DNA of 64,000 nt, taken from NCBI GenBank assembly GCA_050949165.1, contig JBMNFF010000001.1, positions 1,622 through 65,621 on the forward strand. The letters are read 5' to 3'. The notes under the pieces were generated by a model. The model saw only the letters and a program-made list of their open reading frames with translations, did not search any database and was not told where the DNA came from. The stretch comes from Bacillota bacterium (GTDB lineage: Bacteria; Bacillota; Proteinivoracia; UBA4975). Shown one piece after another: positions 4,613 through 58,933 of the stretch. A program made the translations under genes and the position numbers. Each line of letters begins with the position of its first letter. The first letter of the stretch is position 1.

Positions 4613-5305
4613 ATGCGGCTAATAAAGTTTGACCTGATTATCAAGTCTCTGCCCTCCCTCCTGGAGGGGGCGCAGTTGTCCCTGTTGGTCAGTGCCTTGT
4701 CGGTTGCCTTTGGCATCAGCCTCGGCATCCTCATCGCCACTGCTCGCCTCTCAAAAGTCTGGCCCCTTCGGGCGCTGGCCGGGGCCTATGTCGCCTTCCT
4801 GCGGGGCACGCCCATGATCGTCCAGATCTTTATCGTCCACTTTGGCTTGAGTGAACTGGGCCTGACCCTGCCCGCCCTGGTTTCCGGGATCGTTGCCCTG
4901 AGCCTCAACAGCGGCGCCTACATGGGCGAGGTTTTCCGGGGCGGCATTCAATCCATCGACATCGGCCAGACCCAGGCGGGACTGTCCCTGGGCCTGACCA
5001 ACTTCCAAGTCTTTCGCTACATCGTCTTTCCCCAGGCCTTCCGCCGGGTCATTCCCTCCATGGGCAACGAGATGATTACCCTGACCAAGGACTCTTCCCT
5101 GGTCAGCTTTATCGCCATTACCGAGCTGACCTATAAGGCGACCCTCATCGCCTCCAGAACCTATGAGTACTTTACCATGTACATCGGCATCGCCATCGTC
5201 TACTTTGCCATCACCTACACCTTGTCGGTGCTCTTGGGCATGTTGGAAAGGAGGCTGGGACCATATGATTCGGATAGAGAACTTGAAGAAGGCCTTCGGC
5301 GCTAA
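4613..5305 (+). CDS. Polar amino-acid ABC transporter permease (His/Glu/Gln/Arg/opine family)
   Basis: 230 aa, about five TM segments, and the conserved EAA-like loop ([17 protein letters not shown]). Confidence 0.9.
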
Positions 5306-5987
5306 TGAAGTGCTCAAGGGGGTTTCGGTCCAGGTGGCCAAGGGCGAAGTGGTGGTGCTGATTGGAGCCAGCGGCTCCGGCAAGAGCACTTTGCTTCGGT
5401 GTGTAAACCTCCTGGAAGAGCCCGATGACGGCCAGATCTTCATCGACGGCGTGGAGGTCACCGCCCGGGACGTGGTCAGGCACGAGGTGCGCAAGGAGAC
5501 CGGCATGGTCTTTCAGCAGTTCAACCTCTTCCCCCACAAGCGGGTGATCGACAACATCACCCTGGCCCCCATCAAGGTGCGGGGCATGGCCCGGGAAGCG
5601 GCTGAAGAACTGGCTCTGGACCTCCTGGACAAGGTGGGACTGAGGGACCGGGCCAGGTCCTGGCCCCATCAGCTCTCCGGCGGCCAGCAGCAGCGGGTGG
5701 CCATCGCCCGGGCCCTGGCCATGCAGCCCAAAGTCATGCTCTTCGACGAGGTGACTTCGGCCCTGGATCCCGGCATGACCGGGGAAGTCCTCAACGTCAT
5801 GAAACAGCTGGCGGCCGACGGGGCCACCATGATTGTGGTCACCCACGAGATGGCCTTTGCCCGGGAAGCCGGGGACAAGATCATCTTCATGCACGACGGC
5901 GTCATCGTCGAGGAGGGGCCCCCCCAGGAGCTCCTCAACAACCCCCGGCATGAAGCGACCAAGGATTTCTTAAGCAAGGTATTATAA
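5265..5987 (+). CDS. Polar amino-acid ABC transporter ATP-binding protein (GlnQ-like)
   Basis: [11 protein letters not shown]...GASGSGKST (Walker A), [15 protein letters not shown] (signature) and [11 protein letters not shown] (Walker B). GGAAAGGAGG precedes the ATG at 5265. The gene overlaps the permease by 41 nt. Confidence 0.9.
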
Positions 5988-6046
5988 AGGCAAAACACCG
6001 GCGGAAAACCCGCCGGTGTTTGTTTATGACGTGGATGGGGCCGGAC

Positions 6047-7096
6047 TCAGGGTCCGGGCACCAACTTAATTTTGCCGGAATTGGTCAGGCAGGGGAGGAT
6101 GCCGATGTAGTCGGCGCTGACCTGGCCGATGACATTGACCCTCTCATCCTGGGGCAGGCTCCGGGCCAGAATCTGGATTTCTCCCGAGTACCTGCCGTAG
6201 AGGCGGTTGTCCATGGTTATCGCTCCCGCAGCCCTTTCCCCGCAGTTATCCGGCTCCATCAGGTCTCCGGGACAGGAATATTCCCGGGATTCATGGATGC
6301 GCTTGACCAGGAGGGGAGAGTCGGGTCGGATGGTGAAGACCTGATTATACAGGTAGCGGTACCTGGGCAGGAGCTGGCTGGGGACGGCGACGACCCCAGT
6401 CCTGCAGTGCCCGGCAATCAGCCGGCGCTGCCCTGAACTCAGTCCCAGGTCGCCCAGGAAGATTCCATCCAGGCCAAACTTAATCGCCATCTCCAGATAG
6501 GCCAGGTAGGGAGGGAGAGAGCGGTGGGCTTCCACCGTGGGCAACCCGGCATGGATGGGGCCCCGCTTCTCTTCATCCCCGGGGATAAAGGCCAGCACCT
6601 TGATGCCCAACCGCCGCAGCTCGGCATTGAGCCGGGCAAATTGGCAGGGATCCAGGCCGGTTTCCGGCCGGGGGTAGAAGTTGTGCATGGCGTAGACCTC
6701 TCCCCCCGCGGCGACGATTTTTTCAGCAGTAGCGGCGTCCACCGTGGAGGCGTTGAAGGCCAGGGGAAATTCTTCAGCCACCGCCAACATTTCTGCCAGG
6801 GAAAAGCCATAGTCCAGGCGGAGGATGTCCAGGCCCAGCTCCCGGGCGAAGCCCAGGATATCTTCGTGGCCAAAGACCTTCAATGTCTTGGGCGACACAT
6901 CGGCCAGAATCCGGAACCCCGAGCTTTTTAGCCAGTTGCTCATAGCCCGGGCAGCATCGACATAGTCGGCATCAAACTCTTCCTGGATGTGGAAAGAAGT
7001 GAAGACGAAGGTACCCGAGCCGGCCAGGGCCTCCAGGCTCTGCTTCTGGCGGGCGAAGGCCGACACGTATACCGAAAGTCCTAAATCCTTAAACAC
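6047..7096 (-). CDS. mupG: DUF871-family 6-phospho-N-acetylmuramidase (MupG-like)
   Basis: 349-aa DUF871 protein placed last in a murR-murQ-murP operon, as in Gram-positive MurNAc catabolism. Confidence 0.75.
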   Translation of the reverse strand: MFKDLGLSVYVSAFARQKQSLEALAGSGTFVFTSFHIQEEFDADYVDAARAMSNWLKSSGFRILADVSPKTLKVFGHEDILGFARELGLDILRLDYGFSLAEMLAVAEEFPLAFNASTVDAATAEKIVAAGGEVYAMHNFYPRPETGLDPCQFARLNAELRRLGIKVLAFIPGDEEKRGPIHAGLPTVEAHRSLPPYLAYLEMAIKFGLDGIFLGDLGLSSGQRRLIAGHCRTGVVAVPSQLLPRYRYLYNQVFTIRPDSPLLVKRIHESREYSCPGDLMEPDNCGERAAGAITMDNRLYGRYSGEIQILARSLPQDERVNVIGQVSADYIGILPCLTNSGKIKLVPGP

Positions 7097-10397: not shown

Positions 10398-10424
10398 AAA
10401 AAAACTGACCACTTCAGTGGTCAG
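10398..10424 (-). terminator. Intrinsic terminator of lysA (CTGACCACT-GAAGTGGTCAG followed by T7 on the minus strand)
   Basis: Hairpin plus T-run seen in the sequence; it overlaps the lysA stop codon. Confidence 0.6.
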
Positions 10425-11766
10425 TTGGGGTTGGCGCCGCGGGCTCGCCCTGCGCCGCCTTTCTCAGCATATGGGGAGGAATGAAGTCGCGCCTGACCAG
10501 GTCCGCATAATTTTCCCTGGCCACTACCAGTTCGGCCCGGCCGGCGTTGACAAAGACTGCGGCGGGGCGGGCAAAGTGATTGTAATTGCTGGCCAGGGAA
10601 TGGTGGTAGGCGCCGGTGGCCAGCATGGCCAGGATATCGCCGCGTCGGAGCGCAGGCAGTTCGACATCCCGAATCAGGATATCTCCCGACTCGCAGGCCT
10701 TGCCGGCTATGGTTACCAGTTTCCGGGCAGGCTCCAGGGCCCGATTGGCCACGACGAAGGTGTAGCGGGCTCCGTAGAGGGCCGGGCGGGGATCCGACAT
10801 CATGCCGCCATCCACCGCCACGTACTTGCGCACCCCCGGCACCACCTTGCAGCAACCCACCTGGAACAGGGTGGTCCCCGCCGGGCCCACGATGGACCGG
10901 CCCGGTTCGATCAGCAGCCGGGGCAGGGGGAGGCCGTATCTTGCCGCTTCGGCCTTCACCGTCCCGGTCAGCGCCCGCACATAATCTTCTATGGCCGGGG
11001 GCGAGTCTTCCCGCCGATAGCGGATGCCCAGGCCGCCGCCCAGGTCCAGCTCGGCCAGGGTCAGGCCCTGCTCCCGGCGGATCTTCGCCATCAGGCCCAC
11101 CATAACCTCTGCCGCCCTGCGAAAGGGGGCGAGGGAGAGGATCTGAGAACCGATATGACAGTGCAGGCCCCGCAGGTTTAAGCCCGGCAGCTTGACGGCC
11201 CGGGCGACGGCTTTTTGTACCTGGGTGTCCAGGCCGAAGCCAAATTTGGAATCGGCTTGCCCCGTCTGGATATAGGCATGGGTGGTGGGGGCGACAGCGG
11301 GGTTGACCCGCAGGTAGATATTCGCTTCCAGGCTCCGGGCGGCGGCAATCCGGCTCAGGAGGGCCAGCTCCGAAAAGCTGTCCACCACCAGGCGGCCCAC
11401 CCCGGCCCGCAATGCCAGGTCGATTTCCGCTTCGGATTTGTTGTTGCCGTGAAAGATAATCCTTTCCGCCGGAAACCCGGTCTGGAGGGCGGTGTAGATT
11501 TCTCCCCCCGAGACGGTATCCAGGCTCAGACCCTCTTCTTCCACCAGGCGGCAGATGGCGCTGGTCATAAAGGCTTTTCCCGCATAGGCCACCCGGGAGT
11601 CGGGGTAGCATTGGGCCAGGGCCTCCCGGTAGCGGGCGCAGTTCTGGCGGATCAGACTTTCATCCAGCACATAGAGGGGAGTGCCGAACCTCCGGGCGAG
11701 CTCCACTGTATCGCAGCCGCCCAGCTGCAAATGACCTCTTTCGTTGACTTCCAGTCCATTTATCAT
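10414..11766 (-). CDS. lysA: Diaminopimelate decarboxylase
   Basis: 450 aa with the PLP fold-III decarboxylase motifs (..YAGKAF.., GGGLGI, EPGRSIV.., CESGD). GGAGG precedes the ATG. Confidence 0.92.
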   Translation of the reverse strand: MINGLEVNERGHLQLGGCDTVELARRFGTPLYVLDESLIRQNCARYREALAQCYPDSRVAYAGKAFMTSAICRLVEEEGLSLDTVSGGEIYTALQTGFPAERIIFHGNNKSEAEIDLALRAGVGRLVVDSFSELALLSRIAAARSLEANIYLRVNPAVAPTTHAYIQTGQADSKFGFGLDTQVQKAVARAVKLPGLNLRGLHCHIGSQILSLAPFRRAAEVMVGLMAKIRREQGLTLAELDLGGGLGIRYRREDSPPAIEDYVRALTGTVKAEAARYGLPLPRLLIEPGRSIVGPAGTTLFQVGCCKVVPGVRKYVAVDGGMMSDPRPALYGARYTFVVANRALEPARKLVTIAGKACESGDILIRDVELPALRRGDILAMLATGAYHHSLASNYNHFARPAAVFVNAGRAELVVARENYADLVRRDFIPPHMLRKAAQGEPAAPTPTDH

Positions 11767-11867: not shown

Positions 11868-12048
11868 CCCGATGAGATAGCTCTCCACACCGGCCCTGGG
11901 CACTGCCGGTGTGACAGCCCTGCACCTCTTCGGTGCAAGTCCAGCAGCGGACTTAGGTATCCGCCACTTCGGCGAAGGCTCCTTTCCCTGAGGTTCGCTG
12001 GCTTCCGGCCTCCCCCCAGGTACTCTTAGACTTCGCGCCTCTACCCCA
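11868..12048 (-). promoter_or_regulatory. Lysine riboswitch (L-box) in the lysA 5' leader
   Basis: The minus-strand RNA reads GGUAGAGGCGCGAAGUCUAAGAGUA...GGAGCCUUCGCCGAAG...GGCUGUCA...UGGAGAGCUAUCUCAUCG. All conserved L-box blocks are present, in the same order as the B. subtilis lysC leader. Confidence 0.75.
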
Positions 12049-12117
12049 CCCTGGTGTGAGTGAGGTGTGCTATGTTGTTTTACTTTTTTAAACTACCACC
12101 GGCAGGAAAAGTTGTCA

Positions 12118-12513
12118 ATGGAAAGTGCAGGATTTCCCCGGCTTGACCTGGAATACAGGTGGGAGTATACTTTCGGGCAAGGAGTGATTGGCTTGACAGA
12201 AACGGAACTGCGCTGTGAAAAATGCGGCGAGGCCATAGTTTTTCGCAAAGACCTGGTGGTGACCAATCGGATGTTCACCAGGTTTTCCACCTTTCACCGG
12301 GACTGCTTCCAGCAGGCTTTTCGCAAGGGGGAATATGTCGGCCGACCCGCCAATACCCTGACCGCCACCATCGCCCTGGCGATAATCCTGCTGGCAGCCC
12401 TGCTCTTTTATTTCAAAACCCGGGACAGTTTGGTGCTCCTGGTCCTGATCTTCAGCCCCCTCTACCGGCTCTGGATCTGGTTTAATTTTGAGAGGAAGGT
12501 TGGCAATAAGTAA
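12118..12513 (+). CDS. Hypothetical small protein with a CxxC (CEKCGEAIVF) zinc-ribbon-like motif and a C-terminal TM helix
   Basis: ORF only. The start is uncertain; a TTG at about 12196 with AAGGAG is an alternative. Confidence 0.35.
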   Translation: MESAGFPRLDLEYRWEYTFGQGVIGLTETELRCEKCGEAIVFRKDLVVTNRMFTRFSTFHRDCFQQAFRKGEYVGRPANTLTATIALAIILLAALLFYFKTRDSLVLLVLIFSPLYRLWIWFNFERKVGNK

Positions 12514-12545
12514 ATCCGGTTTGACGCCGGATTTATTTTTTTCCG
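12514..12545 (+). terminator. Rho-independent terminator AAATCCGG-TTTGACG-CCGGATTT followed by T7
   Basis: Seen directly in the sequence. Confidence 0.6.
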
Positions 12546-12656
12546 CCTGCTGCCAAGGACCGGGAAGACAGCAATAAATGGAAAGAAGCCGGCGGTCCCA
12601 ACTGGTAAAGTATGGATTAAGCAATGAGCTTTAACTAATTCATAGGAGTGGTCATA

Positions 12657-14291
12657 ATGGGCAGGAAGATTTTGGCGGTTACGGTTATTATTGCGGTCCT
12701 CTGTACACCGGGCTGTAAGATTCGCCTGAAAACCGGTGGCGGGGGCTATAAGGTCGGCGATTTTGTCGAGGTCCAGGAGAATGGAGAATGGTGGAATGCA
12801 GAAATCCTGGAATTGGACGGAGACCGGTACCATGTCTCCCTGAAGGGCTTCGACCAGTACAGCCGGTGGGTGGAGGCGGAGGATATTCGCCCCAAGGAAA
12901 TCCCCCTGCCGGTGGATCAGGAGGCTCCATATAAAATCGGCGATGCCGTCGCCATCGATTGGGGCGGAGAGTATTGGCCGGCGGAAATTCTCCATGTCGC
13001 TCAGGCAGAGTTCTACCTCATCAGCTACCCGGAAGTGGATTACGATTGGGCTGATGAGTGGCTGCCGGAGTACAGGCTAAAGGATAAAAAGGGATTAACG
13101 GAAGGAAGCAGGGTGGAGGTATGGTGGAACGATGCCTGGTGGCCCGGCGAGGTGGTCGAGGTCAGAAACGAGCGCCTTTACCTGGTAAACTACTGGGAGG
13201 AAAGCAGCCTCACAGAAGAGTGGCTGGAGGAGTGGCAGATCTACGGATACGCCCATGAGATTCCCCAAGAAGATCCCGAAGAGCCCCAGGACCCGGAAGA
13301 CCCTGAGGACCCCGGAGATGTGGGCAATATTCCCGATAACCTGGAATTCCCCGAAGGCTTCGATGCCGTCCTGCGCCGGGGCGAGGATACCCGGGCCGAG
13401 GGCTTGCTCTACTATACCCAGCACCGGGAGGGAAGCTGTTGCTACTACTTTGGCAACAGCATGGACGATATAACCCACGTGGTGGTGGAGGACAATGGAC
13501 AGTTCCTGGGCGCCATCATCTACGATGAGAATTTATACCCCGTGCACTGGCTGTTTGAGGAAGTGACCATGGCGGCCATGTGGAGCGAAGAGGAACCCTT
13601 TGCTCCGGAAAATGCCCTGATCAAGCTGGTCTTTGACGAGGATCAGCTGGACATGACCCTGGACATCAGCATGGATGTGCTGACCAAGGATCTGCTGGCC
13701 AAATTGCCCGGGCTCTATGGCGAAGAGTTCGGGGAAGTGGTCCCCGACCTCCTGGCCAAACTGGAGGCCATGGGCTGGAGCGAGCTGTCGGTGGCTCAGG
13801 CTGCGGAGCAGGCGGCCACTCCCCATGAGCTGGCCATGGCCTCCATGCTGACCACGGCCAGCGTCGTCACCACCATAGTCGAAAGCCTGCAAGCCGGGTC
13901 CAGCGCCGGCCTGGGTTCCGGCCTTGCCGGCAGGCAGGCCGGCGGCGCCATCCGCACCCTGTCCCTGTGGGGGGATTTGGGCGACGCCGCCGTCAAATCC
14001 ATGCTTCCCCCTGCGGCGGGCATGCTCTGGACAATTCTCCGCCACCTGCGGGGCCTGGCCGATGGCGCTTACGACGGCGCCGGTATCGCCGGTCCGACGG
14101 TGGGCATGCTGCTCTGTCGGGGCGCCTCCACGGTACCCAACTACTGCAACCACTTTTATCTCTACCACACCAATAAGAATCTGGGGCGCTGCGTGGCCAT
14201 GTGCGTCGCCACCCTGGGCTGTTTTACCGATATCTGCATGCCGGTGACCCTGTCGGTGGAAGAGGCCAACGGGTTCAGAACAGTGCGCTGA
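12657..14291 (+). CDS. Lipoprotein with three tandem Agenet/Tudor-like repeats, an acidic Pro/Glu/Asp linker and a Cys-rich C-terminal domain
   Basis: Lipobox LCTPGC. Repeats VGDFVEVQENGEWWNAEIL.., IGDAVAIDWGGEYWPAEIL.. and SRVEVWWNDAWWPGEVVEV..YLVNY. The C-terminus reads NYCNHFYLYHT..GRCVAMCVATLGCFTDICMP. AGGAG precedes the ATG at 12657. Confidence 0.7.
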   Translation: MGRKILAVTVIIAVLCTPGCKIRLKTGGGGYKVGDFVEVQENGEWWNAEILELDGDRYHVSLKGFDQYSRWVEAEDIRPKEIPLPVDQEAPYKIGDAVAIDWGGEYWPAEILHVAQAEFYLISYPEVDYDWADEWLPEYRLKDKKGLTEGSRVEVWWNDAWWPGEVVEVRNERLYLVNYWEESSLTEEWLEEWQIYGYAHEIPQEDPEEPQDPEDPEDPGDVGNIPDNLEFPEGFDAVLRRGEDTRAEGLLYYTQHREGSCCYYFGNSMDDITHVVVEDNGQFLGAIIYDENLYPVHWLFEEVTMAAMWSEEEPFAPENALIKLVFDEDQLDMTLDISMDVLTKDLLAKLPGLYGEEFGEVVPDLLAKLEAMGWSELSVAQAAEQAATPHELAMASMLTTASVVTTIVESLQAGSSAGLGSGLAGRQAGGAIRTLSLWGDLGDAAVKSMLPPAAGMLWTILRHLRGLADGAYDGAGIAGPTVGMLLCRGASTVPNYCNHFYLYHTNKNLGRCVAMCVATLGCFTDICMPVTLSVEEANGFRTVR

Positions 14292-14294
14292 GCC

Positions 14295-15503
14295 ATGCGG
14301 ACCGCGCTTGCGCTGCTTGGACTGTTCCTGATCCTCTTGCCCGCCGGCGCCGGCGCAGTTGAGGAGGATGTCCTCTGGTTCTTCTGGGGCGAGGGCTGCC
14401 CGGCCTGCCGGGAGGCCCTGACCTGGCTGGATGGGCTGGCCCGGAAATTCCCGGAGCTCACCATCCACCGGGGCGAAGTCTGGCAGGACCCGGAGCAGCG
14501 GGACCTTTACTTGAGCTTGCTGGCGGAAAGGGAGGTGGAGTCCTCCTGGGTCCCAGGCTTTATCCTGGATGCTTCCGTCTGGCAGGGCTTTAACGGTGAA
14601 ATTGCCCGGGAAATCGAGGCGGAGCTGGCGGCTCGCTTTCCCGGCACTCTCCGGCGGCCCCGGCGGGCTCCGCCGCCCGGGCCGGCGAAGGGCGGCTGGG
14701 GGCGGATGCCCCTGCTGGCAGCCACCGTCCTCATCGCCCTGGCCGACGGCTTTAATCCCTGCGCCCTCTGGGTGTTGACTATCCTCCTGGCCATGGTGCT
14801 CCACTGCCGCTCCCGGGGCAAGACCGCCGCTGTGGGGGTGACTTTTTTGGTGGTGTCCGGGGCCGTCTACGGGCTGTTTGTCGCCGGCGTCTTTGCCGTC
14901 CTCAGCCTGGCCGGGTCCCTGGTCTGGATTCGCTGGGCGGTGGCCATCCTGGCCCTGGTCATGGCCGCCCTCAATATCGCCGATTTCTTCCGCGGCCAGG
15001 GGGACTTCACCCTGGCCATTCCCCCGGCTGGCAAACCCGGGATAATCCGGAGGGGGAGGGAGTTGAGCAAAGACCGCCCCCTCCCGCTGGTGCTGGCCAT
15101 GACCGCCGTCTTTGCCGCCGGGGTGACTCTGCTGGAACTGCCTTGCACCGCTGGATTTCCCGTGGTCTGGACCAAGCTGGCAGCCGAGGCGGGGGTGGAG
15201 GGTCCTGCCTTTTGGGCCTTGCTGCTCCTCTATATACTGAGCTTCCTGGTCATGGAGGGGGTGGTGGTGGGCGTCGCCGTCCTCAGCCAGAGAGTGTTCC
15301 GGCTCCAGGAGCGCCATGGCCGCGATCTGAAACTGGTGGGGGGGATGATCTTGTTGACCACCGCCGGCGCCCTCCTGATCAAGCCGGCGATAATGGAGGG
15401 GCTGACTGGGGCCCTGCTGGTCCTGACTGCCGCCTTGCTGGCTGCAGGCGCCATCGGCCTTCGCCGCCTGCGGGCACGCTCCGGCGGCAGTATCCAGGGC
15501 TAG
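14295..15503 (+). CDS. Secreted thioredoxin-like domain (WGEGCPAC) fused to a CcdA/DsbD-type thiol-disulfide transmembrane domain
   Basis: Signal peptide, a CxxC thioredoxin fold, then the DsbD-beta/CcdA motifs DGFNPCALWVL and LPCTAGFP. The start lies 4 nt after the upstream stop. Confidence 0.8.
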   Translation: MRTALALLGLFLILLPAGAGAVEEDVLWFFWGEGCPACREALTWLDGLARKFPELTIHRGEVWQDPEQRDLYLSLLAEREVESSWVPGFILDASVWQGFNGEIAREIEAELAARFPGTLRRPRRAPPPGPAKGGWGRMPLLAATVLIALADGFNPCALWVLTILLAMVLHCRSRGKTAAVGVTFLVVSGAVYGLFVAGVFAVLSLAGSLVWIRWAVAILALVMAALNIADFFRGQGDFTLAIPPAGKPGIIRRGRELSKDRPLPLVLAMTAVFAAGVTLLELPCTAGFPVVWTKLAAEAGVEGPAFWALLLLYILSFLVMEGVVVGVAVLSQRVFRLQERHGRDLKLVGGMILLTTAGALLIKPAIMEGLTGALLVLTAALLAAGAIGLRRLRARSGGSIQG

Positions 15504-15627
15504 CATTCCGACCGGAAACAATTGGAAACGCAGTTTTATTTGCCAATAACTGTGTTGCCAAATATACTGGAATAGACTATTCTTTAATCCAGAGCGTCTA
15601 ATTCTTTTTGCAGCCCGGAGTGATAAC

Positions 15628-17581
15628 ATGAAGCAAAAAAAATTGAAGAACTACTCTCTCTTTTTCTACATCTCCGCCTCCGTATTTTTCATGGAGACTA
15701 TCCTCAGGATTGCCACGGTAGGCGGCAGTTTCTTTTCCCTGGGGGTGCTCATTTCCCTGCTCTTTTCCCTGGGAGCGGCAACCCTCTTCTTTATCATCTG
15801 CACATTTTTCCCGCCGGCCACCAATAGGCGCCTGGCTCTGGCCCTGCTCATCCTCATGGCCACCCTCTTCGGCTCCCAGCTGGTCTACTACGGCATCTTT
15901 ACCACCTTCTACACCGTGTACTCAGCCGGTCAGGCTGGCCAGGTCTTTCAATTCTGGCGGGAGGCGGTGGCTGGCATCGCTGCCAAGCCCATTCCCGTCG
16001 CCGCGCTCTTCCTGCCCGCCATCGCCCTGGGCCTCTTTGGCAAGAGGTTTTTCGCCTTCCCTAGCTTGCGCTGGTCGCGGCGGGGAATCCTGGCGGGGTT
16101 AATCCTGCTCTCCTACGGGTCCGGTCTGGCTGTGGTCCATGCCGGCGGGCGGGGACAAGCTTCGCCCTATGCACTCTATTATGATCGCGCTGTACCGGTG
16201 CAATCGGTGGCCAAGCTGGGGCTTCTCACCACCATGCGCCTGGATATCCAGCGCCAGCTGTCGGGCTGGACCCCCACCGTGGTTCTGCCGCCCCTTGAGG
16301 AAGCCCCGGTCTGGAGTCCTCCCGAACCCGAGGAAGAGCAGGTGGAGTACAATGTCCTGAACATCGACTTCGATTCCCTGCTCAGCGGCGAGGAGGATGA
16401 AACCCTGCGGGAAATGCACCGCTACTTTGCCGGCCTCAAACCCACGGAAAAGAACGAGTTCACCGGCAAGTACCAAGGCTATAACCTCATCCTCATCACC
16501 GCCGAGGGCTTTTCCCATCTGGCGGTGCGCCCCGATGTGACCCCCACTTTGTACAAGCTCTACCAGGAAGGGTATAAATTTACCAATTTCTACACACCCC
16601 TCTGGGGCGTCAGCACCTCCGACGGCGAGTACGTGGCCTGCACCGGCCTCATCCCCAAGACCGGGATCTGGAGCTTTAAGCGTTCCGCCCAGAACTCTCT
16701 GCCCCTGGTCATGGGCAATCAACTGAAGAAACTGGGCTACCAGACTGTGGCCTATCACAACCACTCGTACAAATATTACGGCCGGGACTCTCTCCCATCC
16801 CAATATGGGCTACGCGTACAAGGGCATCGGCAATGGCCTGGAGATCTCCAAGGCCTGGCCCCGCTCCGACCTGGAGATGATGGAGAAGTCCATCCCAGAA
16901 TACATCGGCGACCACCAGTTCCACGCCTATTACATGACCGTCAGCGGTCATCTCAACTACAATTTTTCCGGCAACAATATGGCCGCCAAGAACAGGAAGC
17001 ACGTCCAGGACCTGCCTTATTCCAAGACGGCCCAGGCCTACCTGGCAACCCAGATCGAATTTGACCGGGCCATGGAATACCTGCTGGGGGAATTGGAGAA
17101 GGCCGGCGTCGCCGACAGGACCCTGATCGCCATCAGCGCCGACCACTATCCCTACGGACTGGAGCGGTCGGCCATTGAAGAGCTGGCGGGGGAAAAGGTG
17201 GATAATAATTTCGACCTGTATCGCAACTCCTTCCTCCTCTGGACCAAGGGCATGGAGCCGGTGACCATCGACGAGCCCTGCTCCAGCCTGGATATAATCC
17301 CCACCCTTTCCAACCTCCTGGGCCTGGACTACGATTCTCGCCTCCTCATGGGCCGGGACATCCACTCCCAGGCCGATCCCCTGGTGATCTTTGCCGACGG
17401 CAGCTTCATCACCGACAAGGGCCGTTACGATGCCAATGCCGAAAGATTCGAACCCAATCCCGGGGTCAGCGTCGAGGAAGGCTATGTAGAATCCATCTGC
17501 AATATTGTGGCCTGCAAGACCTATTTCTCCGCCATGATCCTGGATACAGACTATTACGCCAAGGTCTTGCCCGATTGGTAA
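15628..17581 (+). pseudogene. LtaS-family sulfatase/phosphoglycerol transferase (LTA-synthase-like), interrupted by a +1 frameshift near 16789
   Basis: Five N-terminal TM helices plus an extracellular sulfatase domain. ORF 15628..17064 and ORF 16805..17581 join as ...YKYYGRD|LSHPNMGYAYKG... by skipping one base in the 'gactctctcc' run. Confidence 0.7.
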
Positions 17582-44346: not shown

Positions 44347-44526
44347 GCTTCACCTCTCGCCTTTCTTCTGGTTAAGCACATTTTACCATAGATAGCTCTT
44401 GGCGGGTCAGATAACCCAAGATTTTCTCGCAAGGGGAAGAGGCACGCCGCATAAACCTTCCTAAAGCAGGGATTTGGTAAAATATTGTCGAATGTTGTAC
44501 TATCTCGGATTTCTGGAGGGGATTAT

Positions 44527-46968
44527 ATGCATCTCAACTTAGAGCAGAAGCGACTGATCACCGCCACCCCCAGCGGCGCCACGCTGGTGCGCGGGGTTGC
44601 GGGCTCCGGAAAGACCACTGTTGCCGTGCATCGCGCGGGCTATCTCCTGAATAATTACTGCCTGGGCGAATCCGACCGGGTGCTTTTGGTTACCTATAAC
44701 AAAACCCTGGTCAAGTACCTGCGTCATCTCTATGAGAAGGTCAATGTCGAGGAAGGGGCATATGTCAACCTCTTTGGCCCCAGCCAATCTCAGGTGGACA
44801 TCACGACCATTGACAGCATTTTCTACCGCTATTATTGCAGCCTCTTCCCAAAATCCCAGCGCCGGGAACAGCTGTACGGCAATAACAACAAGAAGTACCA
44901 GGTCATCAGGAACTGTATAGCCGAGTTGGCCAAGAAGTTTGAGGATACCAATATCTTGGACCCCAAGAATGCCAGCTTCCTCTTGGATGAGATAGATTGG
45001 ATTCGCTCCTGCAATTATATGGAGTTATCTGAGTACCAGAATGTCGACCGCCTGGGTCGCCAGAGCTTCACCCAATCTGAAGGTCCCCAGCGGTTGCGCA
45101 AGAATTCCAGAACCCGCCATGCCATCTTCGAGCTGATGCTGGCCTACGATGCCCGTCTGGAGGAAGAGGGGCTCATCGACCCTAAGACCAGGGACATCCT
45201 GGTCTTAAAGAAGGCCCAGGAGCGACCTGAGCCGAAGTACACCCATATCATCGTCGATGAGAGCCAGGACCTGACCCGGGTGCAGCTGGAGTTTCTCAAG
45301 CTGTTGTACAAGCCGGGAGATTATTCCAGCCTCTTCTTCGTGGCGGATACCGCCCAGAGCATCTATCCCCATTCCTGGTTGGTGCGGGGGCGGAGCTTCA
45401 CCAGCTTGGGCCTGGACCTGACGGGCCGTGGCAATGTGCTGAGCAAGAACTACCGGACCACCACCCAGATAGCCCAGGCAGCCTACAGCCTCATTGAGGA
45501 GAACACAGAGATTGTCGAGGACGAGTACTATGTGGAGCCGGCTCTCCTGGACAAGCAGGGCCAGTATCCGGTGTACACGCACTTTACCTCCGAGCAGGAA
45601 GAAGCGGAATATGTTGCCCGGGAAATACACCAATTGCTGAATACATACCGCCCCGGCGAAATCATCGTCATCGCCCGGCTCAATCGGCAGCTGGAAATGG
45701 TCCAGCACGTACTGGAGGAACAGGGCCTGACCTGCCAGCTCTTGAAGGATCGGGAGGCCAGTTTCGACGAAGACTGCATCAAGCTGTTGACCATCCATTC
45801 CATCAAGGGCCTGGAGTTCAAGGTCGTGTTCATCATCGGTCTCAATGATTCCGTCATTCCCCTCATCGCCTACACCGAGATGGACGAAGGTATGCAGGAG
45901 ATTACCGAGCGCAAACTCTTATATGTGGGGATGACCCGGGCTGCTGAGCTCCTGTACATGTCTTCCTGCGCCCAGCCCTCCCGCTTCCTAAAGAGCATCT
46001 CCCCCCAGTACCTGCGCCTGTCCAGCGGCAGCCGCTTCAGCCATCTGTACAATATCCGCCCCGATGAATACCAGTTCGCCGAAAAGATCCTGGACATCTA
46101 CAGCAAGGAAGAGAAGGTCAGGCAGTGGCTGCTCCGGGAGTTGCAGGAAAAGTACAACTATCCCCGGGCCCTGTTGTCGGTGGAGTACAAGGTCAACAAC
46201 ATGTCCCGCACCGGCTCGGTGGACATCTGTATCCAGGTAAGCCGGGACGGCAGGCTGGTGCCCTATATCTTCTGCGAGGTCAAGGCCCCCGGCAGCGGCA
46301 CAAGCCAGGCCCTGGACCAGCTCAAGAGCTATATGAGCAATGCTAAGCATTGCCAGTACGGCCTGGCCACCGACGGCAGGGATATGGTCATCATCGATGC
46401 CGACTTTAATCCCGTTGACGACATCCCGGCCTTTAACCGGTTCATGTTGCCCAGCACCATGGAAAGATACAGCTTCCACTGCTTCACCAGCAAGCGCAAG
46501 TTCAACCTGGTCAGGGACAGCAACCTGTCCCAGGAAGTGATAGTAGAAACCGCTGCCGGCAGCGAGGCCTACAGTGGAGACAAGTTGAAGCTCATTCCCA
46601 CCTATGAGGGGATTGCCGCCGGCCAGCCCATCTACATGCAGGGCAGGAGCGAGGCCAGGTTCTACCTGCCCAGCGAATGGCTGCGGGGCAGGGAGAACTG
46701 CTACCTCCTCCAGGTCAAGGGAGACAGCATGATCGAGGCCGGCATAGATGATCAGGACTATGTCCTTATTCAGCACCAGTCCACCGCCCAAAACAGGGAT
46801 ATCGTGGCCGTGGCCATTGACGATGAGGCCACCCTCAAGCGGTTCGTGCGCATGGGGGATTCGGTGTTGCTGATGCCGGAAAACCCCAAGTATGAGCCCA
46901 TCCAGCTCTCGGACAACCAGGCCAGAATTGTGGGCGTGGCCATTGGGCTGCTGAAGAAAGAGAGTTAA
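44527..46968 (+). CDS. Three-domain protein: UvrD-like SF1 helicase, an HsdR-N/Mrr-like PD-(D/E)xK nuclease module, and a C-terminal LexA-like S24 self-cleaving peptidase domain
   Basis: GGAGGGG RBS plus the ATG giving MHLNLEQKRL. Helicase motifs: GVAGSGKTT (I), IIVDESQDLT (II), NYRTTTQIAQAAYSLI (IV), IHSIKGLEFKVVFIIGL (VI region). Nuclease module: SVDICIQ...IFCEVKAPG...QALDQLKSY. S24 domain: IAAG|QP (Ala-Gly cleavage site), VKGDSM (Ser) and ATLKRF (Lys). Confidence 0.8.
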   Translation: MHLNLEQKRLITATPSGATLVRGVAGSGKTTVAVHRAGYLLNNYCLGESDRVLLVTYNKTLVKYLRHLYEKVNVEEGAYVNLFGPSQSQVDITTIDSIFYRYYCSLFPKSQRREQLYGNNNKKYQVIRNCIAELAKKFEDTNILDPKNASFLLDEIDWIRSCNYMELSEYQNVDRLGRQSFTQSEGPQRLRKNSRTRHAIFELMLAYDARLEEEGLIDPKTRDILVLKKAQERPEPKYTHIIVDESQDLTRVQLEFLKLLYKPGDYSSLFFVADTAQSIYPHSWLVRGRSFTSLGLDLTGRGNVLSKNYRTTTQIAQAAYSLIEENTEIVEDEYYVEPALLDKQGQYPVYTHFTSEQEEAEYVAREIHQLLNTYRPGEIIVIARLNRQLEMVQHVLEEQGLTCQLLKDREASFDEDCIKLLTIHSIKGLEFKVVFIIGLNDSVIPLIAYTEMDEGMQEITERKLLYVGMTRAAELLYMSSCAQPSRFLKSISPQYLRLSSGSRFSHLYNIRPDEYQFAEKILDIYSKEEKVRQWLLRELQEKYNYPRALLSVEYKVNNMSRTGSVDICIQVSRDGRLVPYIFCEVKAPGSGTSQALDQLKSYMSNAKHCQYGLATDGRDMVIIDADFNPVDDIPAFNRFMLPSTMERYSFHCFTSKRKFNLVRDSNLSQEVIVETAAGSEAYSGDKLKLIPTYEGIAAGQPIYMQGRSEARFYLPSEWLRGRENCYLLQVKGDSMIEAGIDDQDYVLIQHQSTAQNRDIVAVAIDDEATLKRFVRMGDSVLLMPENPKYEPIQLSDNQARIVGVAIGLLKKES

Positions 46969-57112: not shown

Positions 57113-58933
57113 GTGGCAAGCACATTCAAGTCCAATGACGTACCTATCGCTGAGATTTTAAAGCAGATTGCGAAAGGGGAGACCCAGCTTCCAGATTTTC
57201 AACGGGGATGGGTATGGGATGAGGAGCGGATTATTGCTCTTATTGCCAGCATTTCTAATTCATATCCCGTAGGGGCTTTAATGTTCTTAGAGTATGGTGG
57301 GGATTCGGTCAGGTTTCACTACCGTAAATTTACGGGGGTAAAAGTGGATAATACTATCCCCAATATTTTAGTATTGGATGGCCAGCAGCGTCTCACATCG
57401 ATTTACAGTGCGATGTATTCCAGGGATGCGGTTGTCACTCGTACAGATAAAAACAAAGAAATTCAAAGGTTTTTTTATCTTGATATCGAAAAATGCCTGG
57501 ATACTTCCACTGATCGCGTTGATGCTATTATTTCAGTTCCGGAGGATAAAATAATCCGGTCAAATTTCGGGCGAGTTATCGATCTAGACGTAAGCACCAG
57601 GGATAAGGAGTTTGAAAACCACCTGTTTCCGCTGAATATAGTATTTGACTTCATTGAATGTGCTAAATGGCAGAATGAGTACCAGAAATATCACGGGTAC
57701 TCGCCTGAAATATTGGATCGCTATGCGAGATTTAATGCTGAGATACTGGTGCCAATCCAGACTTATAATGTTCCTGTCATAACTTTGGGTAGGGGGACCC
57801 CTAAGGAAGCAGTGTGCCAAGTTTTCGAGAACGTTAATACCGGCGGGGTATCCTTGACAGTGTTTGAACTAGTAACTGCTATGTTTGCAGCAGATGATTT
57901 TCGGCTGAGGGATGACTGGGAAGAAAGAAAGGAACGCCTTGTTAATGAATCTGCGCTTTCAGTTTCCAACCTGGATGCAGCCGTATTATCTGTAGTGTCA
58001 CCCACTGATTTCCTTGTGGCGGCTACCTTGCTTTCCAGATACTACATCAAAGCTCAGGGTGGAGAAGCCGTTAGTTGTAAGAAGAAGGACGTCCTGCGCC
58101 TCACGCTTGGTGAATATAAGAACTATAAAGAGCAACTAACTAACGGTTTTATCCAAGCTGCCAGTTTCCTTAAGGAGCAACGCATTTTTTCTGCAAGGGA
58201 TTTACCATACAGCACACAGTTAATTCCCCTGGCAGTTATATTTACCATTCTGGGCAAGCAGGCTCATGATGTTTTTATTAAAGATAAGATTGCCCGTTGG
58301 TACTGGTGCGGCGTATTGGGCGAGATGTACGGTGGCGCCAACGAAACCAGGTATGCCACTGATGTGACTGGTATGATGGATTGGATAAATGGCGGCGAGG
58401 AACCGGATACAATTCAAAGAGCATATTTCCAGCCCACCCGGTTGCTTACCTTGCAGACCAGGCTCAGCGCAGCATATAAGGGGATAATGGCTCTGATTTT
58501 AAAAACAGGATGCTTGGATTTCATTAGCGGCAGCGCTATGGACTTCACTGTTTTCCTTGATGAAAGCACTGATATTCATCATATATTCCCGAGAGCATAT
58601 TGCGAGAGCGTTGGGCTACCGAGATCGAGGTGGAATTCGATTGTTAATAAAACGCCGTTGTTCGCGAGGACTAATAGAATTATCGGGGGCAGTGCTCCCA
58701 GTGAATACTTGAAAAAAATTGAGAGAGATGGGCGTATCACTAAGGAGCAGCTAGACGATTATGTCGCTTCGCATCTTATCGACGTGTCATGCCTAAGGGA
58801 AGACGATTTTGACACTTACTTTATTAAACGGGCAAAAGCGCTTTTGAAAGAAATCAGCTGCGCCATGGGCAAACCCATTGCCAATTTAGGTGGGGATGAT
58901 GTAATAATCGGCTTTGGCAGCTCCTTGGAGTAG
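57113..58933 (+). CDS. GmrSD-like type IV (modification-dependent) restriction endonuclease: N-terminal DUF262 (ParB/Srx-like NTPase, DGQQR) plus C-terminal DUF1524 (His-Me finger)
   Basis: VLDGQQRLTSIY in the N-terminal half and DIHHIFPRAYC in the C-terminal half. GTG start after GGGGAGGGAG. Confidence 0.8.
   Translation: MASTFKSNDVPIAEILKQIAKGETQLPDFQRGWVWDEERIIALIASISNSYPVGALMFLEYGGDSVRFHYRKFTGVKVDNTIPNILVLDGQQRLTSIYSAMYSRDAVVTRTDKNKEIQRFFYLDIEKCLDTSTDRVDAIISVPEDKIIRSNFGRVIDLDVSTRDKEFENHLFPLNIVFDFIECAKWQNEYQKYHGYSPEILDRYARFNAEILVPIQTYNVPVITLGRGTPKEAVCQVFENVNTGGVSLTVFELVTAMFAADDFRLRDDWEERKERLVNESALSVSNLDAAVLSVVSPTDFLVAATLLSRYYIKAQGGEAVSCKKKDVLRLTLGEYKNYKEQLTNGFIQAASFLKEQRIFSARDLPYSTQLIPLAVIFTILGKQAHDVFIKDKIARWYWCGVLGEMYGGANETRYATDVTGMMDWINGGEEPDTIQRAYFQPTRLLTLQTRLSAAYKGIMALILKTGCLDFISGSAMDFTVFLDESTDIHHIFPRAYCESVGLPRSRWNSIVNKTPLFARTNRIIGGSAPSEYLKKIERDGRITKEQLDDYVASHLIDVSCLREDDFDTYFIKRAKALLKEISCAMGKPIANLGGDDVIIGFGSSLE

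Follow-up and report, generated by a model that had tools for sequence, protein, structure and literature searches.

A stretch of 64,000 nucleotides from the genome of an uncultured Bacillota bacterium (the window) encodes two adjacent genes on the plus strand, here called A (12657..14291) and B (14295..15503), which look like a two-gene transcription unit and are found side by side in about ten lineages. Gene A specifies an exported protein, probably a lipoprotein, whose C-terminal module ends in a tail with six invariant cysteines, and gene B a protein in which an exported domain of thioredoxin fold is joined to a membrane domain with seven predicted helices. We propose that the A-B operon combines an extracytoplasmic client with its own thiol-disulfide oxidoreductase, which would act on the tail cysteines of A through a DsbD-style relay, an interpretation whose chances we judge to be evenly balanced.

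The open reading frame (ORF) of gene A comprises 544 codons from an ATG at 12657, which is preceded at a distance of 8 nt by a Shine-Dalgarno sequence, AGGAG (12644..12648, plus strand, read from the sequence), with which an alternative GTG start at 12648 overlaps. The TGA of A and the ATG of B (402 codons) are separated by 3 nt and not by the 4 nt given in an earlier, sequence-only reading of this locus, and a ribosome-binding site belonging to B is not obvious. An intrinsic terminator of the upstream small ORF (12508..12545, plus strand; 13-bp hairpin followed by a U-run, -15.4 kcal/mol, z=-3.5) is the 5' boundary of the unit, a search for a terminator-like site between A and B found none, and promoter-like hexamers are present 3' of B (15540-15583). 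Because of the 3-nt gap, the terminator upstream and the promoter-like hexamers after B, the two genes look like a single transcription unit. No paralogue of A or B was found elsewhere in the 64-kb window, and NCBI lists the exact B protein under the name 'hypothetical protein', its source being a Bacillota metagenome-assembled genome (MAG).

The last ~300 residues of A (13380..14288, plus strand) constitute a conserved module of an unannotated family, which ends in a Cys-rich tail (14094..14288, plus strand) containing C487, C497, C512, C516, C522 and C527 in the motif LLCRG..C..FY...C-x3-C-x5-CFTDIC-x-P. The tail had previously been described as a five-Cys cluster; it contains six cysteines, all of which are invariant in 26 of 26 aligned family members, with the family pattern LLCRG-x(8-12)-C-x(9-14)-C-x3-C-x5-CFTDIC-x-P. 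An exhaustive HMMER search of 1.84 billion representatives identified 69 proteins with this module at E<=1e-3, the six-Cys tail being its most widely conserved part. Between A and its orthologue, the last ~110 residues are nearly identical and the remainder is ~55% identical. The N-terminal partners of the module vary across the family and include FGE-sulfatase combined with Tudor/Agenet and Big_4 domains (sometimes with GYF_2), WD40, LamG-like and Fibrobacter major paralogous domains, and Cys-rich regions.

In the AlphaFold2 model of the A module (predicted local distance difference test score, pLDDT, 85.7; predicted template modelling score, pTM, 0.85), a beta-meander of eight strands is combined with a helical bundle and a small alpha/beta unit rich in cysteine, in which the C-x3-C pair is located on a helix. 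A Foldseek search of this model against the PDB identified no comparable fold (best E=0.02, TM score ~0.2), and a PDB sequence profile search with the module retrieved only designed helical bundles at E>0.1. Pfam and NCBIfam scans of the module, of the tail alone and of the 26 members yielded only weak single-member matches (best E=0.002), and no family was matched by more than one member. By these comparisons, what is truly new in A is its C-terminal module, which represents a small family without a Pfam or PDB match. A C-terminal sorting signal was also considered for A and rejected, as the tail shows no hydrophobic or basic character and B lacks sortase-like or exosortase-like features.

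Gene B encodes a signal peptide followed by a thioredoxin/glutaredoxin-like domain (14364..14639, plus strand) with a CPAC active site (14397-14408) and a cis-proline, P87. All of the 32 diverse homologues compared retain C35, C38 and P87. The B family profile matches glutaredoxin 1 (Grx1) in the PDB (E=7.6e-5), the Pfam Glutaredoxin family is matched by 16 of the 32 members, and the AlphaFold2 model of B (pLDDT 83; ~92-97 across the block of residues 31-110) retrieved thioredoxin matches only in Foldseek (prob 1.0, target TM score 0.6-0.66). With its CxxC motif, cis-proline and modelled fold, the N-terminal domain of B is classified as a thioredoxin-fold oxidoreductase, and the earlier prediction of a signal peptide, a CPAC motif and a thioredoxin fold was borne out. 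A Pro/Arg linker connects this domain to the membrane domain (14700..15482, plus strand), for which seven spans are predicted and which contains Cys156 (14760-14762, in DGFNPC) and Cys284 (15144-15146, in ELPCTAGFP). Both cysteines occupy invariant columns in the 32 homologues, and the modelled helices break at residues 153-154 and 281-286, that is, at Cys156 and Cys284. The loop charges, read from the sequence, are consistent with a seven-transmembrane (TM) topology with the N-terminus outside and the C-terminus inside. The B family comprises >900 clusters at E<=1e-3 without a Pfam or NCBIfam model, and many of its members bear the JGI name 'cytochrome c biogenesis protein CcdA/glutaredoxin'.

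The A-module alignment was used to scan GTDB genomes and JGI metagenomes, which yielded 40 loci; B was then located in these by tblastn, and a reciprocal look-up was conducted from B. A B gene lies directly downstream of the A-module gene in the window and at L001-7, L008, L009/40, L010, L013/41/42, L014, L027 and L045, and the reciprocal look-up added A-B pairs at L036/37 and L038/39. The pair is thereby found in ~ten distinct lineages, all of them Bacillota wherever an organism is named in the record, among them Halobacteroidaceae and Clostridiales MAGs. The intergenic gap, 3 nt in the window, is 8-28 nt at the other loci, and the A modules of paired loci share only 33-37% identity. The nearest relative, L001, is fully syntenic with the window and on its own proves little; the conservation of the two genes as neighbours, for which the sequence-only reading had proposed a distribution check, extends beyond such trivial synteny. 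The N-terminal parts of A differ among the pairs, with three Tudor repeats in the window, FGE-sulfatase, Tudor and Big_4 at L008, and GYF_2, FGE, Tudor and Big_4 at L036/38. The flanking genes are likewise unrelated, encoding a PQQ propeller and a hydantoinase at L008, a Germane/beta-propeller protein and an adenylate cyclase at L036, and LysA and LtaS in the window. Because A and B are neighbours in ~ten lineages despite different A N-termini and different flanks, these comparisons support a dedicated functional link between them. By the same comparisons, the conserved partner of B is the whole ~300-residue six-Cys module and not the Tudor repeats; of the earlier proposal that B is a redox partner dedicated to the lipoprotein, the link between the two genes is upheld, whereas the partner shifts from the repeat-bearing protein to this module.

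The observations to be explained are the anatomy of the domains, the fact that all the cysteines are invariant, and the operon arrangement with its conservation. We infer a redox relay in which the tail of A, exported and probably lipid-anchored, would be the substrate. Reducing equivalents would pass from the cytoplasm to the two membrane cysteines of B, predicted to lie in the middle of TM1 and TM4, and from there to the CPAC domain, which would be held outside the membrane by its fusion to the polytopic domain. The CPAC domain would in turn reduce or isomerise the six invariant cysteines that probably hold together the small alpha/beta unit of the A module. Whether B makes, reshuffles or reduces disulfides, all of which had been considered earlier, is not readable from sequence, although the Pro-Cys pattern of its membrane domain favours a reductive role as reductase or isomerase over that of an oxidase.

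The defining feature of the DsbD superfamily (DsbD, CcdA and ScsB) is a pair of redox-active membrane cysteines at similar positions, from which electrons pass to an exported thioredoxin-like domain (PMC3322552). B resembles the members of this superfamily in having two invariant, Pro-preceded cysteines in the middle of TM1 and TM4 (NPC156 and LPC284), an outside N-terminus, and coupling to an exported CxxC thioredoxin fold. It differs in the order of its parts, since its thioredoxin domain precedes the membrane domain and DsbD and ScsB carry their gamma domain at the C-terminus, in having seven predicted helices compared with six in CcdA and eight in DsbD, and in lacking a counterpart of the DsbD alpha domain. 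A comparable arrangement of CcdA with surface thioredoxin lipoproteins is known from the CcdA-ResA/StoA system of Bacillus subtilis. Similarly, in the CcdA-Etrx-MsrAB2 system of Streptococcus pneumoniae, extracytoplasmic thioredoxin-fold reductases are fed via a membrane Cys pair and act on a specific exported client that is encoded nearby (PMC3914529). In contrast to both systems, the thioredoxin and membrane parts of B form one polypeptide, and the candidate client is a new six-Cys module instead of the MsrAB or apocytochrome served by the CcdA systems of Gram-positive bacteria.

Several results weigh against a DsbD-style relay acting on A. Disulfides in the tail of A are predicted only. None of the 32 B members matched PF02683 (DsbD_TM) or PF13386 (DsbD_2) at E<=1, a PDB profile search with the B family retrieved no CcdA or DsbD chain at E<=10, and alignment of B to a DsbD-beta profile was non-significant with hhalign (P=0.09-0.34) and likewise with hmmsearch, this profile being a shallow one built from Escherichia coli DsbD and 115 homologues (120 fetched), which are enterobacterial and Vibrio sequences only and 63-100% identical to the query. 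Furthermore, B homologues stand alone among unrelated neighbours in Halomonas and two other lineages (three members looked up), and most of the B family falls outside the A-linked clade. Conversely, no B-like or thioredoxin-like gene neighbours the A module on two Clostridia contigs (L011 and L012), at L043, or at any of the non-Bacillota loci (Bacteroidales, Thermodesulfobacteriota, Chloroflexota, Rhodothermus and Halobacteriales), within 228 kb of flanking sequence for all loci together. Finally, shared descent could be a partial cause of the A-B adjacency, which occurs within one clade.

With regard to the superfamily, a single, non-significant hhalign alignment is co-linear over ~197 columns and places both membrane cysteines of B on C163 and C285 of DsbD. 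A tblastn search of plasmids for a link to DsbD/CcdA found only one B-family member, and an internal 3+3 repeat was not detectable by sequence in the membrane domain of B, where only the PC[ST] motif aligned. On present evidence, B would work like a DsbD/CcdA-thioredoxin fusion, as judged by analogy of architecture, and its membership in the superfamily is unproven. The CcdA/DsbD module assigned to B by the sequence-only reading is consequently retained as an architectural match, whereas homology finds no support from HMMER or hhalign.

The distribution of stand-alone B genes would also be expected if B were a general extracytoplasmic thiol-disulfide housekeeping protein, a role that stand-alone B proteins presumably have, and its position next to A merely gene order inherited within one Bacillota clade, with A being one of many clients or none. 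The >900 B clusters compared with 69 A-module representatives point in this direction, as does the occurrence of A without B at L011 and L012. The A-linked B proteins form one clade in a neighbour-joining tree, with the three known stand-alone proteins placed elsewhere, a grouping that speaks for the dedicated pair but also fits plain vertical inheritance. We nevertheless regard a pure housekeeping role as rather unlikely, since the adjacency, with gaps of 3-28 nt, outlasts the exchange of the A N-terminus, the duplication of A (L008 and L009) and a full turnover of the flanks, and gene order is not normally retained without selection at an A-module identity of 33-37%.

B might alternatively be an oxidase, a fused DsbA/DsbB-like or VKOR-like enzyme that would introduce three disulfides into the tail of A and pass the electrons into the membrane. 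Being invariant and placed on a compact alpha/beta unit, the six cysteines of the tail look like structural ones. Many members of the B family carry CPHC, the active site of DsbA type, and the organisms concerned may lack a classical DsbA/DsbB. DsbB and VKOR, however, employ loop Cys pairs or a CxxC motif together with quinone. B instead contains single cysteines in two separate helices, each preceded by proline, which is the pattern of DsbD and CcdA (PMC3322552), and no quinone-binding family was matched in Pfam scans of the window proteins and the 32 B members, which makes an oxidase improbable. Far less probable still is a cofactor-binding tail, in which a heme (via the C-x4-C-H-like sequence 'CFTDIC[H/M/Q]P'), a metal or an Fe-S cluster would be bound and B would act as a maturation reductase in the manner of CcdA/ResA in cytochrome c biogenesis. 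CcdA-type systems do serve cytochrome c maturation (PMC3322552), and about half of the aligned members contain CFTDICH, a sequence similar to a CX4CH heme c site. Yet the residue that follows the last cysteine, M in the window, varies among H, M, Q and A in the family, so that an invariant axial histidine is lacking and the tail does not have the invariant His directly after the second Cys by which c-type cytochromes are recognised. No heme lyase genes (CcsBA/ResBC) were found in any locus examined, and the signal peptide of A, read from the sequence, contains no twin-arginine (Tat) motif for the export of a folded cofactor protein. Given the variable His position and the missing Tat signal, the heme c and Fe-S interpretations of the tail were both rejected. 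We favour the client-oxidoreductase operon as the working model for A and B.

The N-terminal part of A begins with a signal peptide and lipobox region (MGRKILAVTVIIAVLCTPGC; 12657..12716, plus strand; residues 1-20), which ends in TPGC. When compared to the lipobox pattern [LVI][ASTVI][GAS]C, position -3 is non-canonical in the window, whereas the aligned orthologue P0002 has a canonical LAGC, and canonical lipoboxes are also present in several distant A-family members. Lipidation of A, as had been proposed from the sequence, is likely but not certain, with the orthologue in its favour and the TPGC of the window against it. A word-indexed search of 5.8 billion proteins with A retrieved only two clusters; the orthologue P0002 shares 55% identity with A by BLASTP and 59% in a MAFFT alignment.

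The signal peptide is followed by three tandem Tudor/Agenet-like repeats, as previously noted. Repeat 1 (12744..12902, plus strand; residues 30-82) matches Pfam Agenet on its own with 31.5 bits, above the cut-off of 27. Repeat 2 (12927..13085, plus strand; residues 91-143) has no Pfam match alone and aligns to repeats 1 and 3 and to the KDM4A Tudor domain. Repeat 3 (13092..13256, plus strand; residues 146-200) scores 21.8 bits with Agenet, below the cut-off, and 20.2 bits with the MORC2 chromo-like family, and aligns to KDM4A and plant Agenet structures. The three units of ~53 residues are mutually similar in local alignments, with z=8.8 for repeats 1-2, 10.9 for repeats 2-3 and 5.0 for the remaining pair, and the observed scores were reached by 0 of 500 shuffles. 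The whole A protein matches Agenet (PF05641, clan CL0049) with 40.1 bits, exceeding the gathering cut-off of 27. Furthermore, a profile of A and its orthologue (two sequences) matches the KDM4A double Tudor domain across repeats 2-3 (E=1.5e-4), the MRG15 chromo domain and a plant Agenet structure. By these profile matches the repeats are Agenet/Tudor-like. They are rich in aromatic residues, with 14 Trp and 13 Tyr in residues 28-200, and are followed by an acidic Pro/Glu/Asp linker (13257..13322, plus strand, read from the sequence), which is variable and longer in the orthologue. The likeness to the KDM4A/JMJD2A double Tudor and plant Agenet domains is at the level of sequence; those proteins are nuclear chromatin readers of eukaryotes, whereas the repeats of A are predicted to be extracytoplasmic.

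Secreted bacterial chromo-like and Tudor-like domains of the SH3 fold have already been described, occurring in 2-6 tandem copies with an aromatic cage and predicted to bind peptidoglycan or matrix peptides (Kaur, Iyer, Subramanian, Aravind 2018, PMC5906684). The earlier statement that such repeats are rare in bacterial surface lipoproteins needs changing accordingly, although the same survey reports these domains to be nearly absent from Firmicutes (PMC5906684). The repeats of A are similar to those surveyed in being exported, tandem, aromatic-rich and combined with other extracellular domains, and differ in occurring in Bacillota, where their combination with FGE-sulfatase, Big_4 and the six-Cys module is a recurrent one. 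Because a binding role of this kind has been proposed for the secreted chromo-like domains (PMC5906684), the three aromatic-rich repeats, predicted to form barrels, would most likely tether A to a ligand in the envelope, e.g. peptidoglycan or a matrix peptide.

Secreted Tudor-like repeats and DsbD-like logic are known kinds, while no description of the B family, of the six-Cys module or of the operon that they form was found in Pfam, NCBIfam, the PDB or the searched literature. With its >900 clusters, the B family may constitute a fourth class among DsbD-type relays or may have reinvented such a relay independently, and in Bacillota it would have become dedicated to a six-Cys module with interchangeable ligand-binding heads (Tudor, FGE-sulfatase, LamG and WD40), a view that we put forward tentatively and with more doubt than confidence. 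How disulfides are handled in the envelope of Bacillota has been charted poorly, especially for anaerobes, and examples of natural client-enzyme pairs are few. The A-B locus provides a compact, genetically linked candidate for such a pair, through which the function of the six-Cys module could be approached via its redox partner. As a large, unannotated and DsbD-like family, B could also widen the known classes of membrane electron transporters, and the locus adds Bacillota examples of secreted Tudor/chromo-like repeats, which have been reported to be nearly absent there (PMC5906684).

Several further features were observed at the loci of the two families. In the Halobacteroidaceae MAGs, two tandem A-type paralogues precede a single B (L008, 1304-3820 and 6531-8948; L009, ~4681-6078 and up to 8939). 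According to Pfam, both paralogues of L008 combine FGE-sulfatase, Big_4 and the six-Cys module, the Tudor/Agenet match is present in the first only, and a PQQ beta-propeller gene is located between them. Two or three paralogues of ~360 residues with no known function are encoded 3' of B at these loci; they were considered as a third conserved partner and rejected, as they occur at Halobacteroidaceae-type loci but not in the window or at L001, L036 and L038. Upstream beta-propeller genes were similarly rejected as a conserved partner, being non-homologous between loci. At L041 (7233-8675), and also at L013 and L042, a degenerate second Cys-rich tail, detected as two short tblastn segments, lies between the A-type gene and B. 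It precedes the B ORF in the same reading frame at L041, so that B is called there as a protein of 480 residues (P0032), and probably represents the remnant of a deleted second A paralogue. A six-Cys-module gene was also identified in a Halobacteriales archaeon MAG from soda-lake sediment (L017, 22-831), which implies either transfer between domains of life or bin contamination. At two gammaproteobacterial loci with a stand-alone B, L029 (8088-8522) and L034 (8736-9179), a DUF4399 gene is encoded ~1 kb downstream on the opposite strand; because these two loci are syntenic, this is not independent evidence of a link.

The genes neighbouring A and B in the window are typical of Bacillota and include MurQ/RpiR, lysA with a lysine riboswitch, an LtaS-like sulfatase, a glucosaminidase and a G5-DPBB lytic transglycosylase. 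A single frameshift at ~16789 divides the LtaS-like sulfatase gene (15628-17581, plus strand) into two ORFs that overlap (15628..17064 and 16805..17581). The L001 orthologue of the sulfatase is an intact protein of 649 residues, of which residues 2-386 and 387-647 match window frames 1 and 2, respectively, and the split gene is either a pseudogene or an assembly error. The lysine riboswitch (11870-12051, minus strand; Rfam RF00168, 112.9 bits) is located upstream of lysA (10414..11766, minus strand). Because the 5' end of the riboswitch abuts the listed start of the small plus-strand ORF 12067..12513, the true start of this ORF is probably later than listed. In the second half of the window (30000-64000), G+C decreases from ~0.60 to 0.40-0.53, and defence-type genes are present, encoding a UvrD-helicase/HSDR_N/S24-peptidase fusion (44485..46968) and a GmrSD-family endonuclease (57113..58933); this region is possibly a defence island or an acquired region.

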